Source: Octopus vulgaris (taxonomy: Eukaryota). From it: 64,000 nt of DNA. Where the stretch lies: assembly GCA_951406725.2 (NCBI GenBank), contig OX597818.1:15004001-15068000 (forward strand), written 5' to 3'. Each line of letters opens with the position of its first letter. Within the stretch, counting starts at the first letter, position 1. Both the position numbers and the translations under genes were made by a program. The notes below the pieces were generated by a model that was given only the letters and a program-made list of their open reading frames with translations, searched no databases and had not been told where the DNA came from. This document shows positions 801 to 56,534 of the stretch, piece after piece.

Positions 801-2241
801 TTTCCTTTTGCTTCTGAACCACACGTCTGCTAAATAACTCATTCGACCACTTCGATTGCATTTCCTCTCACCTAATATACGGCATAGTATGCAAACACTG
901 TTGTCAAGATGAGGTGCTGCTCGGGTGATCGGTTGGTTCTATGAATATTTAACTGTCTGGAATCATGTCTGAAGAAATCCTAAACTCGTACTCCGTTACT
1001 TTAAAGCACTCGATTGCCCCAACTAGCTGGTCTTCGCTATAGGGAAAAACGTCTCAACTTCAGCTTGGGTACCTCTAGTTTCAGGCTTTGAATACATTCC
1101 TCAACTCACATATAATTACTACTCCCATCGACCTGTACCCAGTATCCTTTCCTTTTTGCTCTTTTAATTAAGAAGAGTCTATGTCTATACAATTCACATT
1201 TGTGTAGATGCGTATATATGCATGTGTACGTGTGTACACTCCTACGAACTTGTGTCTGTGCATGTCTGTCTGTCTATAAGTGTACTTGTTTGTATATGAG
1301 TGCATTTTGCCTATGCTTGCTTCAGTTAATAAACTAATAATTCGGCAACATTAAAAATATTCTTGGGTGTCTTTTTACATAAAAAGCTTTCTAGGTGTGA
1401 TTGCTCTTTACTTCCTTATCTTTATCTGAATACAACCCTTTTATCTTTTGACTGGTTCGAGATGTTAATTCATTCTATCTTCCTTCTATAATTCTTATAC
1501 CCTTCCCTTCGTTCGCCACTGATACAAAATTTCTCACCATATCGTATAACCTGTTTCTATCCCACTCCTCTCAATTGTTATATTATTATTTCACTTCTAT
1601 ATTACTCTTTAACTTCCTTGTTTACCTGCTGTTTTGTGTAGTTTTATATTTGAAGTATTTCACGTTAAGAGAGAACGTAGGTATAGAGAGATAAAGTGAC
1701 GAACACTTGTAAAAAGGTAAAGTTAAAGATGTTAAATATTATATTCAGCTGTCGTATATAGCCAGCGATTATCTACGCTTATACATAATAGCAACGTATT
1801 TTGATGATTCGGTGGTAATAGGGTTTAAAACCTATTTAAAGTACAATCGTTGCATGTTCTACGAATAGCTGGTTTATGAAATACTGTTAAAACGAATAAA
1901 AAAAGGAAAAGAGAGTGTACCACACACACACATACACATACACACACACGCACACACACGCACATATACACACACACGCACATACATACACTCTCACATG
2001 CTAAAACAATATCTTGAAGACAATGTTTTGCATTGGTATCATTGTATAATATATTATTAGAGTATGTATTTTTCAAGAAAATCATTGATTATATTTAAGG
2101 AATTTGTGCTGCAGTACGCTTTCGTTTGTTATTTGAATTGATTAAGCTCATTTCATATGTATCGGCAACAACCTCTATCTTTATCTCTTATCTCTTATGA
2201 TAATCTTATGATAAAAGGCAGATTTTCTCTGCCTGTTCCCA

Positions 2242-2308
2242 TGATTTTTGATTTTTGATTTTTCCAGTTTCAGCTAATGAGCTGTGGCCATGCTGGGGCA
2301 CCGCCATT
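2242..2308 (-). mobile_element. Stem-loop retroposon 3' tail with (AAAAATC)3 terminal repeat attached to tRNA-Gly
   Basis: AATGGCGGTGCCCCAGCATGGCCACAGCTCATTAGCTGAAACT, 41/43 identical to the tail at 56478-56520. Confidence 0.85.
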
Positions 2309-2322
2309 GAAATAAATATCTT

Positions 2323-2387
2323 TGCATCGGCCGGGAATCGAACCCGGGCCGCCCGCGTGGCAGGCGAGCATTCTACCACTGAACCAC
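2323..2387 (-). pseudogene. tRNA-Gly(GCC) copy lacking first 6 nt of acceptor stem; probable retrocopy
   Basis: Reverse complement GTGGTTCAGTGGTAGAATGCTCGCCTGCCACGCGGGCGGCCCGGGTTCGATTCCCGGCCGATGCA matches eukaryotic tRNA-Gly-GCC; expected 5' GCATCG is replaced; no CCA; followed by AAGATATTTATTT and a retroposon tail. Confidence 0.9.
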
Positions 2388-3448
2388 AATTCTACAATAT
2401 AGAATTTCTTCAATTGGAATTTACCTATGATTTTTCCAAGTAGATTCGATTGGGTCATGGCTTGTAAAGTTTTTTTCAATTTGACCCCCAATTAAGCAAA
2501 AATTCGAGAAAACTCAATATTTTACGATTTGCCTCTCTCATTTCAAGTGGTTTGCCCCTGCTATTACCAACACACTTTCTCCTTTCTCTTTGCAAGTGTG
2601 AAATTATTAAAGTGAAAGTATTAGATAACAGGGATGAGCCATTAATACTGGTCATCCTTTTTGCTTGAGGAAGATCCGCTATGGTCTTATATGCTACACC
2701 ACTGGTTTTCAATTCATATTAATCAAATTAATATTCAATTTTTCACCCTTATTATGTGTGTGTGTGTGTATTAGCAATTCGTATAAAATTGCATCAATGA
2801 CTTGAACTTGAATAAGTGCTTTCACATAAATGGGGATAAATTAAAAAGGTTTGTTGTTATTATTATTACTGTTTGACTATTGTAATCACGTTTGTTGGTT
2901 CCGCGTCAGGGAAACGTTGTTGTGTTGCATTTGTTAAATAATTGTAAACCGTAACCCTCCCCTTTCGGAGAAGGGGCTTTGGTTATTGTTTCAAAATTGA
3001 ATTGTGTCCCTGTTTGGGAAAATTGACAATATTTTCACCGTCTTTACGGAAGCAATTTTGTTAAAATGCCTTCGATAGAAGAAAGTCCAAAAATGAATTT
3101 CGCTGCAGCCCTACACTTCTATACAAGAGGGAGGACAAGATCCAATTGATCGAAATTGCAAGAGACGGGCCTACAATTCCAGTCTGTTATATATTTTGAG
3201 TATTGTTATCACTAGCGATATCAAGATATAACTTTGTATTTTGTATTTTATGTGTAGATGTATATATATAGATGTACATGTAATATGTACACATATATAT
3301 ACACATATAGACATGCATAATATATCTACCCATACGCACGCACACACACATACATAGGGGCAGGTGTGGCTGTGTGGTAACAAACTACATTCCAAACACA
3401 TGGTCCTGGGTTCATGTACATATATACAAACATACATCCATACATACA

Positions 3449-27130: not shown

Positions 27131-27185
<55 letters not shown>

Positions 27186-27600
27186 TGTTCATAATGGCCC
27201 TCTCAGACATGCCCTCAGCCACGCAGAGAGCCACGATCACAAGTTATGCAGATGATACAAAAGTTTCACAAGCAATACAGAACCCTGAAGACACTAAACA
27301 CCTGCAATGTGAGCTGGACAAAATATACAAGTGGGCTGAAAAGAATAGCATGCAGTTCAATGCTGAAAAGTTTCAAGCTTTATGCTATCAGCATGCAAAA
27401 CTAAATGCAATACCCAATGAATACACTGGACCCGGAGGGATTGCAATCCCAGAGGCACAATCAGTGCGTGGCCTGGGTATTTACATAAGTGATGACGCAA
27501 CATTTCATGTACATGTTGCTAAATTGGCAATGAAATGTAGACGACTGGCCGGATGGATTCTTAGAACCTTTAGAACAAGAGAACAAGAAACCATGATAAA
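27186..27600 (+). mobile_element. CR1/L2-group LINE RT fragment
   Basis: SYADDTKV...LQCELDKIYKWAEKNSMQFNAEKFQAL; related fragment at 28170-28465. Confidence 0.85.
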
Positions 27601-28169
27601 CAATTTAATTTGGATTGGTTGATTCTCTCCATTTCGTTCCCTTATGATAAAAGCAAGGAATTTTGCCATCTCTAATTTTTTATTCTTTTTTTCTAAAACT
27701 CTCCTTGCAAACACGGTTATAGAACGTGCTTATCGATGTAAACATTGGCAGAAACATTCCTTAGTTCATATAAGTGATATCTACCATTAAATATAATTTA
27801 AACATTGATTTTCTTCTTACATTTCACTTCCACTAGATATATATTGTTTCCAAGACTTTAGGCTTTTATTTAATTCACATATTCTATATTTCTCATTTAT
27901 TTGATTTCTGATTTTTTCTTTCTTTTACCTCTTCTCTTTCTATAGGCTGCCTTTGACGTTATGACCTCTAACGTTTTTTAAATAAACTTAATAGCGTTCA
28001 GTTCATCACTATACATATCCATCATATTCTGTTAAAATGTCTTATTGACGAGTTTTATTTCTTCATTTCTCTAAAGAGAAGATTACATTGTTTTACACCA
28101 CACCATTTTATTTTTGAATAGTACCAATGATGTCTTCGAAACATGAGTCAGAAGTAAAAGAATTTGAAT

Positions 28170-28465
28170 AACAATCCCAGAAGCTAAATCAGTGCGGGAC
28201 CTGGGTATCGACATGAGTGATTATAATTCTTTCCAAGTGCACATTACCAAGATGGCATGAAAGTGCAGACGGCTGGCTGGCTGGATTCTGTCCTGAGAAC
28301 CTTCAGACCAAGCGAGAAGGAAACCGTTATGGTCCTTTGGAATACATTCGACCTTAGCCGCCTGGACTACTGCTCCAGCTTTGGTCACTCCATAGTGTAA
28401 AATTAACAGCGGAGCTTCAAGCAACTTAGCGAATATTCACAAAGAAGACCGTCTCATTGCAATAC
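28170..28465 (+). mobile_element. Second fragment of the same CR1-group LINE
   Basis: CAATCCCAGAAGC...TCAGTGCG...GGCTGGATTCT matches 27444-27580. Confidence 0.75.
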
Positions 28466-44244: not shown

Positions 44245-44431
44245 CTTTTATTTGTTTCAGTAATTTGACCTCAGCCATGCTGGAGCACCGCCTTGAAGAG
44301 TCTTAGTCAAACAAGTCGATCCCAGGACTTTTTCTTAAAAGCTTAGCTCTTATTCTATCGGCATCTTTTACCAAACAGCTACGTTATGGGGCCGTAAACA
44401 TATCAATACTTTGTTGCCAAGTGGTAATGAG

Positions 44432-54924: not shown

Positions 54925-55316
54925 TTTTACTCTTTTACTCTTTTACTTGTTTCAGTCATTTGACTGCGGCCATGCTGGAGCACCGCCTTTAGTCGAGCAA
55001 ATCGACCCCAGGACTTATTCTTTGTAAGCCCAGTACTTATTCCGTCGGTCTCTTTTGCCGAACCGCTAAGTGACGGGGACGTAAACACACCAGCATCGGT
55101 TGTCAAGCAATGCTAGGGGGACAAAGACAGACACAAATGTGACCTCGTGTGTACCGTTGGCGATTTTTTTCCTCTGTCTTCCTATGTTTCCGACGAAGAG
55201 CTCCGTTCGAAACGTTAAACCCTCCTTCTTCCCTTCTTTCCTGAGCGTCCAATAATACTATATTTGTTCCACGTCCTCGCGTTGTTGTGTTTTTTGTGTT
55301 TTCTTGTTTGGATTAA

Positions 55317-56351: not shown

Positions 56352-56472
56352 GCTTACGGCCATATCACGTTCAAAGCACCGGTTCTCCTTCGATCACCGA
56401 AGATAAGCAAGATCGAGCCTAGTTAGTACTTAGATGGGTGATCGCTTGGGAAACCTAGGTGCTGTTAGCATT
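56352..56472 (+). pseudogene. Full-length dispersed 5S rRNA copy (retrocopy or SINE3 head)
   Basis: GCTTACGGCCATATCACG...CGATCACCGAAG.TAAGCA...GTTAGTACTT.GATGGGTGA...GGTGCTGTTAGCATT; several substitutions at normally conserved sites, no T-run terminator, sits in (TA)n. Confidence 0.92.
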
Positions 56473-56477
56473 AAAAA

Positions 56478-56534
56478 AATGGCGGTGCCCCAGCATGGCC
56501 ACAGCTCGTGAGCTGAAACTAGATGAAATGAAAT
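56478..56534 (+). mobile_element. Stem-loop retroposon 3' tail attached to 5S
   Basis: AATGGCGGTGCCCCAGCATGGCCACAGCTCGTGAGCTGAAACT + AGATGAAATGAAAT. Confidence 0.85.

Follow-up and report, generated by a model that had tools for sequence, protein, structure and literature searches.

A 64,000-nt stretch of the Octopus vulgaris genome (the window; positions 15,004,001 to 15,068,000 of contig OX597818.1, assembly GCA_951406725.2) contains, within positions 2242-2437, a 5'-truncated tRNA-Gly joined to a short double-hairpin tail. This focal locus is probably a one-step chimeric retrocopy, in which the 3' end of a long interspersed nuclear element (LINE) was joined to a nascent pre-tRNA. The same junction recurs throughout the genome: about half of the genomic copies of the tail start no more than a few bases away from the hairpin 1 base, and a range of RNA polymerase III (Pol III) transcripts are joined to it there. 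We consider it likely that such products arise through an end-to-end jump of the reverse transcriptase (RT) from a short, protein-protected tail RNA.

The focal locus lies on the minus strand and begins with a tRNA-Gly(GCC) head (2387-2323) comprising tRNA positions 7-73 and identical to its parent gene, in agreement with the initial annotation, which had described a tRNA lacking its first 6 nt and CCA. The head is followed by the 13-nt pre-tRNA trailer AAGATATTTATTT (2322-2310), which ends in the Pol III terminator T-run, by a single C (2309), by the 43-nt LINE 3' tail (2308-2266, with hairpin 1 at 2306-2285 and hairpin 2 at 2284-2271), and by the terminal short repeat GG(AAAAATC)3 (2265-2243), which is typical of a LINE subfamily and whose last bases (CAT) overlap the host target. 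What had been noted as a trailer-like stretch is a true trailer: a pattern covering the tRNA-Gly end and the trailer occurs at exactly two sites genome-wide, namely the focal copy and an intact, tailless tRNA-Gly gene (L032), in which the same trailer ends in TTTT. The focal head thus derives from the nascent transcript of one identifiable gene, of the kind that the initial annotation had proposed to look for. The C at 2309 is absent from the parent gene and is likely of non-templated origin.

The chimera interrupts a host repeat that continues on both sides of it on the minus strand (2388-3395 on the 5' side and 2204-2243 on the 3' side, resuming at 2243 after the tail). Alignment of 10 copies of this repeat showed that it reaches the first two bases of the tRNA head (GT, common to both) and restarts right after the terminal repeat, with the loss of ~11-13 nt of host sequence and no target-site duplication (TSD) around head and tail. 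Because the host repeat is otherwise unbroken, head and tail arrived together in one insertion. The 14-mer at 2424-2437, previously suggested to be a TSD, lies inside the host repeat, which has 99 matches, and is host sequence. The host repeat as a whole spans 2204-3395 (~1.2 kb) and ends in TA or simple repeats.

These features correspond to those of a LINE-mediated chimeric retrocopy. A same-strand copy of a cellular RNA lies directly 5' of a LINE 3' end, its source lies elsewhere and its head is bounded by transcript ends (shown for the Gly gene and for a Phe source cluster), and head and tail entered as one insertion at three loci (focal, L066 and L079). These three, among 56 headed loci, are those with both flanks in one repeat represented among the loci collected, and the repeat was continuous around head and tail in all three. 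A TSD enclosing head and tail, which had been expected, is replaced at the focal locus by the 11-13 nt target deletion; since TSDs are short or absent in L2 chimeras as well, the assignment rests on the remaining features. Short target duplications were seen by eye at L080 and L040. The tRNA-Gly chimera does not constitute a SINE (short interspersed nuclear element) family, as this head and trailer are present in one chimera only.

The missing TSD also leaves room for a two-step history, in which Pol III genes or older retrocopies were already in place and tail-only units landed in the adjoining T-run, and the preference of the LINE for A/T-rich and TA-repeat targets would suit such a history. 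Against it, the parent tRNA-Gly gene is tailless, a single host repeat is continuous around head and tail at three loci, no tail follows any tRNA in the gene clusters examined (Pro, Phe, Cys, Arg, Thr), and the heads are 5'-truncated at tRNA-specific positions. Sequential insertion is therefore largely refuted, and we regard it as very improbable.

The initial annotation regarded the tail as a minimal module repeatedly joined to Pol III RNAs; the repeated joining was borne out, but the tail is the 3' end of a LINE rather than a free module. Its first 30 nt have 6,715 exact copies in the 2.8-Gb genome (0 for the reversed control), and the first 30 of these loci were preceded by the LINE (18), one SINE (3), U6 (2) or other sequence (7). 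The source element is an apurinic/apyrimidinic endonuclease (APE)-type non-LTR retrotransposon (LTR, long terminal repeat) of at least ~3.2 kb, with an endonuclease-RT open reading frame (ORF) upstream of the tail (Pfam RVT_1 and Exo_endo_phos_2). Young copies are up to 99.6% alike, and the closest named homolog is from Argonauta hians (63%). From its motifs the element is putatively CR1-like. The start of the LINE ORF at L181 (near 3280-3200, minus strand) carries a Cys/His motif that has no Pfam match and that we take to resemble a CCCH finger.

The tail folds as two adjacent hairpins, and the LINE, like others of the stringent type, ends in a 3' stem-loop and tandem repeat in place of poly(A). 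When 11 tail sequences drawn from four families were compared, pairing held in 93% of cells and three pairs had changed on both sides, figures that come from related sequences and do not express a probability; such compensatory changes preserve the structure across tail families. Two further versions of the tail end sister LINEs, which are 62-81% identical in protein.

The fixed position of the junction was evident from a search pattern tied to the tail's 3' portion, which gave 7,826 matches. Among 100 listed copies, classed by hand count, 46 were LINE-attached, 13 belonged to a young SINE and 41 were neither, the last class being under-sampled through the first letter of the pattern. The breakpoints of all 41 fell at -5 to +7 relative to the first base of stem 1, with 27 at -3 to -1. 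Truncations further up the LINE numbered 9 in about 21,000 nt, so that the rate at the stem base is, by our own arithmetic, ~100-fold higher per nucleotide. For a sister-LINE tail, 38 of 100 copies were LINE-attached and 62 were not (hand count). We also considered whether the tail might itself be a tRNA-like Pol III unit processed by RNase P; this fits less well, since most breakpoints are 1-3 nt ahead of the stem and their range covers 12 nt. At three loci (L070, L071, L074), target sequence is present in short tandem duplications just 5' of tail-only insertions, which suggests repeated priming on target DNA at these 5' junctions.

The RNAs joined to the tail were examined in two samples enriched by design, consisting of 53 distinct loci from a T-run search and 100 listed copies with a T-run at the junction. 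Pre-tRNA heads with gene-specific trailers were found for 15 amino acids (Ala, Arg, Asp, Cys, Gln, Glu, Gly, Ile, Leu, Lys, Phe, Pro, Ser, Thr and Val), one of them (L040) retaining its intron, and the non-tRNA heads at the junction comprised U6, 5S, full-length 7SL and vault RNA. The prediction of the initial annotation that a genome-wide search would find many unrelated Pol III heads at one junction therefore held. The 100 T-run-junction copies included 36 tRNA, 7 5S, 3 U6 and 1 vault RNA head, compared with 1 in 500 control windows. The unenriched, 3'-anchored sample of 100 tail copies yielded six established and two probable small-RNA heads, from which chimeras for this one tail alone are estimated at several hundred. 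One parent trailer recurs with differing 5' ends and differing tail subfamilies, indicating independent events, and most of the chimeras look like independent single copies rather than amplifying families.

U6 provides a view of the junctions from the side of the head. When 100 of 178 U6 3' ends were classed by hand, 37 were followed by double-hairpin tails (of four versions), 34 by whole SINEs from their 5' starts, 2 by U6, 10 by pieces of other repeats and 17 by no recognised sequence. Among 30 fetched U6 loci, 12 joined the LINE at nt 3109-3114 and none joined inside it.

A simpler account would be that one or two ordinary SINE families, each with a fixed head, supply all of the matches; the uniform young SINE that makes up 13 of the 100 sampled copies is such a family. 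The presence of tRNAs for 15 amino acids and of four other RNA classes, with varying trailers, 5' ends and tail subfamilies, refutes this account for the tRNA, U6, 5S, 7SL and vault heads, and as a general explanation it is hardly tenable.

Several further observations concern the heads. Pre-tRNA heads are also joined at recurring points to the ends of other repeat families (L191, L202, L205, L207, L321, L328-L332), indicating that several octopod retroelements capture Pol III transcripts. L206 is a tailless copy of a mature tRNA-Lys with CCA, flanked by a direct repeat of ~14 nt and carrying T at position 58, and would represent a different, L1-type retrocopy route. Upstream of the tail at L056, L061 and L153 are tRNA-like heads that match no standard tRNA; the first two share head and downstream flank and may form a small amplified family. 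Canonical U6 is accompanied among the heads by a variant whose 5' stem is distinct (L036, L083, L108). Finally, unrecognised heads with T-run ends lie upstream of the tail at L089, L091 and L072, and sequences fused to the tail in this way may reveal unannotated Pol III RNAs.

The 5' ends of truncated tRNA heads carry a second regularity. Most cytosolic tRNAs contain 1-methyladenosine at position 58 (m1A58), and tRNA-Pro contains 1-methylguanosine at position 37 (m1G37), both of which block RTs. Among 168 loci, 14 short tRNA stubs were counted, which start at positions 58-61 in 11 cases (6 at 59) and at 63-64 in 3; two rows starting at 46 and 49, long heads scored against another isoacceptor, were left out of this count, as were Asn-, Met- and Lys(CTT)-like stubs without a reference. 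Weaker stubs begin at 65-66. A genome-wide search for Gly matches found starts at 58/59 in 10 of 14, a figure weakened by a pattern that excludes intact copies by design and is blind to starts beyond 59. Hand counting of 23 Pro matches outside the gene cluster gave 12 long heads, 8 starting from 58/59, 2 from 38 and 1 near 53. The starts at 58-60 and at 38 would be explained by RT stops at m1A58 and m1G37, respectively, and this pattern supports the view that the heads were copied from modified RNA, as far as sequence can indicate. Stubs also occur on the ends of other repeats, and jumping is thus not unique to this LINE. Among long heads, T in place of A at position 58 (2 of 32) gives a hint of A58 misreading that is at most suggestive; such a T is commoner among Lys copies with other partners, for which the control finder was noisy and a variant gene is possible.

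In the mechanism that we propose, ORF2p would bind both hairpins and shield them. Cleavage or 5'-to-3' degradation would meanwhile remove the LINE RNA upstream, so that a short RNA with a physical 5' end remains and serves as a tail template of roughly 55-65 nt. Target-primed reverse transcription would begin from the terminal repeat. At the 5' end of the tail RNA, the RT could finish, producing a tail-only insertion, or could add a few untemplated bases and jump end-to-end onto an oligo-U-terminated RNA that is abundant in the nucleus, with pre-tRNA, U6, 5S, 7SL, vault and SINE transcripts as candidate acceptors. Synthesis on the head often stops at tRNA position 58-60, or 38 in tRNA-Pro, presumably at the modified bases, and the target site receives head and tail as one unit, accompanied by a short duplication or a small deletion of target sequence, as observed at three loci. 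A rare product could then amplify as a new SINE, in which the head would act as Pol III promoter and the tail as RT recognition signal.

Jumping between templates is favoured, indirectly, by the finding that junctions of U6 with natural SINE 5' ends are as frequent as those with the tail start, by the extra bases, C among them, that junctions often hold, and by the behaviour of the R2 enzyme. According to the available text of the R2 study (10.1101/2021.04.30.442027), the R2 RT jumps only from the 5' end of its template, to the 3' end of another RNA, with addition of untemplated bases. The jump envisaged in octopus is of the same kind; the difference is that R2 jumping was demonstrated in vitro, and jumping is deduced here from the genomic products of an APE-type LINE.

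Two other routes to the same junction were weighed. In the first, no short RNA is formed, and an RT copying full-length LINE RNA stalls or is released just past hairpin 1, through the grip of ORF2p, and switches template there. Such stalling would yield the same structure-linked breakpoint and requires no extra processing step, but the same U6 heads join natural SINE 5' ends, and the R2 enzyme, admittedly a different one, is described as not jumping when paused mid-template (10.1101/2021.04.30.442027); we find this route unlikely. In the second, a cleaved LINE tail fragment is ligated to a small RNA and the fused RNA is then copied. Ligation also predicts sense orientation, heads ending at the U-run and, if cleavage is site-specific, a fixed junction; U6 heads are common in this genome, and ligation is described for human U6/L1 in the available text of Law and Burns (PMC11838501). 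Its weakness lies in the ends of the RNAs concerned. Pre-tRNA, 5S and 7SL transcripts make up most of the heads and in general have 3'-OH ends and not cyclic phosphates, and U6 is also joined to whole-SINE 5' starts, which are expected to carry triphosphate. Extra bases, C included, at many junctions are likewise not what ligation would give, and we judge it quite unlikely.

Several points weigh against the jump from a short tail RNA as drawn here. The discrete tail RNA is a prediction from genomic copies, the head was unrecognised in 53 of the 100 T-run-junction copies, and host continuity was assessable at only 3 of the 56 headed loci. The route is not universal, as in two Pro copies the junction lies within the tail, at microhomology and with no trailer. 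A few breakpoints lie 10-13 nt further upstream (L010 and one sister-tail row), and A/TA microhomology with the flanks blurs breakpoint positions. For the modification footprint, the score cut-off hides stubs under 10 nt, the two C3 Pro stubs may be non-independent, and A at position 58 is kept in 30 of 32 long heads. The CR1-like placement of the source LINE is drawn from motifs; the homolog and atlas matches bear no clade name.

A broader reading, which we regard with slightly more doubt than confidence, is that the ORF2p-bound double hairpin is a nuclease-resistant mini-RNA that acts as a portable adaptor: LINE transcripts would release it, about half of events would insert it by itself, and it would routinely be extended onto nascent Pol III transcripts. 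If so, proto-SINEs would form a standing library in the genome, from which at least one young SINE family emerged, and the RT stops would preserve tRNA modifications (m1A58, m1G37) as a kind of fossil record.

The young SINE found at the same junction has a uniform tRNA-like head, a body and the LINE tail in many copies, four fetched copies being 97-99% alike. It consists of the first ~156 nt of an older tRNA-headed SINE and this tail, joined with a 2-nt overlap; elsewhere the older family continues into one of three distinct 3' halves. At L237 and L216 this SINE head was fused independently to the tail, and the head is also fused to the sister tail, once at the same point. The young SINE likely arose by template jumping, with DNA recombination as an alternative. 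A SINE-generating system, as envisaged by the initial annotation, is thus indicated for one family, and most of the chimeras fall outside it as independent single copies. Octopus SINEs are reportedly named OK, OR1 and OR2 in a listing from the literature.

Chimeric retrocopies are known for L1, L2 and RTE elements, and template switching has long been proposed for the acquisition of SINE tails. The comparisons that follow draw on the available parts of the cited papers. The closest precedents are the U6-L2/U6-Mon1 chimeras of platypus and U6-L2/RTE chimeras of Anolis, for which template switching was proposed (Doucet et al. 2015, PMC4476161). There too a stringent-type LINE or its SINE supplies a short 3' piece behind a small RNA, with heads often 5'-truncated and TSDs short or absent. 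They differ in that, in the parts available, the animals are vertebrates and the heads U6 (platypus has 40, and turkey one doubtful U6-CR1), with no mention of a fixed junction; in octopus, the heads are mostly pre-tRNAs, with 5S, 7SL and vault RNA, the junction lies at the stem base, and about half of the LINE ends are tail-only. In human, tRNA, 5S, 7SL, U6 and SINE sequences are similarly co-inserted 5' of truncated L1 (Law and Burns 2025, PMC11838501), but the tRNA chimeras there comprise 21 loci with tRNA halves, mostly antisense, and TSDs of 9-19 bp, unlike the sense pre-tRNAs with trailers, estimated hundreds of copies and single junction in octopus.

SINEs that share a 3' tail with a partner LINE (Hayashi et al. 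2014, PMC4176376; Ohshima 2013, PMC3747384) likewise carry a LINE stem-loop and short repeat, as do both the young and the older octopus SINEs. Such families have one uniform head in many copies, whereas the RNA-headed octopus copies are independent events, and correspond to the intermediates from which SINEs are thought to arise. The same distinction applies to snoRTE/PlatSINE1 and SINEU (PMC7245038, PMC4494074), which also place an unusual small-RNA head on a LINE-related tail but are uniform amplified families, while the octopus copies differ from one another in head, 5' end and tail subfamily. The comparison literature also included PMC4758252, PMC5786205, PMC3531059 and PMC4233971, and an octopus repeat annotation (PMC13282606) with a table of U, U-L1 and 5S SINE categories; the LINE and the young SINE may already be listed in its supplement or in the deposited octopus library.

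In the literature searched, which included few subscription papers, we found no fixed stem-base junction, no tail-only half, no broad capture of sense pre-tRNAs, and no RT-stop footprints in genomic retrocopies. Chimeric retrocopies as such (U6-L1, U6-L2) were already known, and the elements that appear new are the structure-set junction, the breadth of pre-tRNA heads and the modification footprint. The gain of a LINE tail by a small-RNA head is the founding step of most SINE families and is usually reconstructed from finished families. In octopus, the intermediates are abundant, their source genes are traceable and the junction is set by RNA structure, with a young SINE and independent recurrences of the same fusion alongside, which makes the template-jump model testable. 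There are also consequences for genome annotation: 8 of the 30 top Rfam tRNA matches fetched, chosen regardless of the tail, carry one and are such retrocopies, and tail-only units fall below the 100-bp filter applied to the summary statistics of one recent octopus repeat annotation, as given in its available text.

The window contains a second tail copy, on the plus strand, where the 43-mer was reported to recur behind 5S rRNA. A full-length, diverged 5S rRNA head (56352-56470; Rfam 91 bits) is followed by a junction of TT and an A-run (56471-56477), without a T-run trailer, and by the tail (56478-56520), which is identical to the focal one at 41 of 43 nt. Both differences lie in the loop of hairpin 2, and no match of this kind arose in 100 shuffles. 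The subfamily loop and terminal repeat differ from those of the focal copy, indicating an independent event; the repeat in the left flank is not resumed on the right side. A related double-hairpin tail ends an older SINE at 54940-54990 (minus strand), with more copies near 44275, 17326, 37684 and 50188, and tailless internal pieces of the tail-source LINE and of a relative are present at 27185-27613 and 28168-28382.
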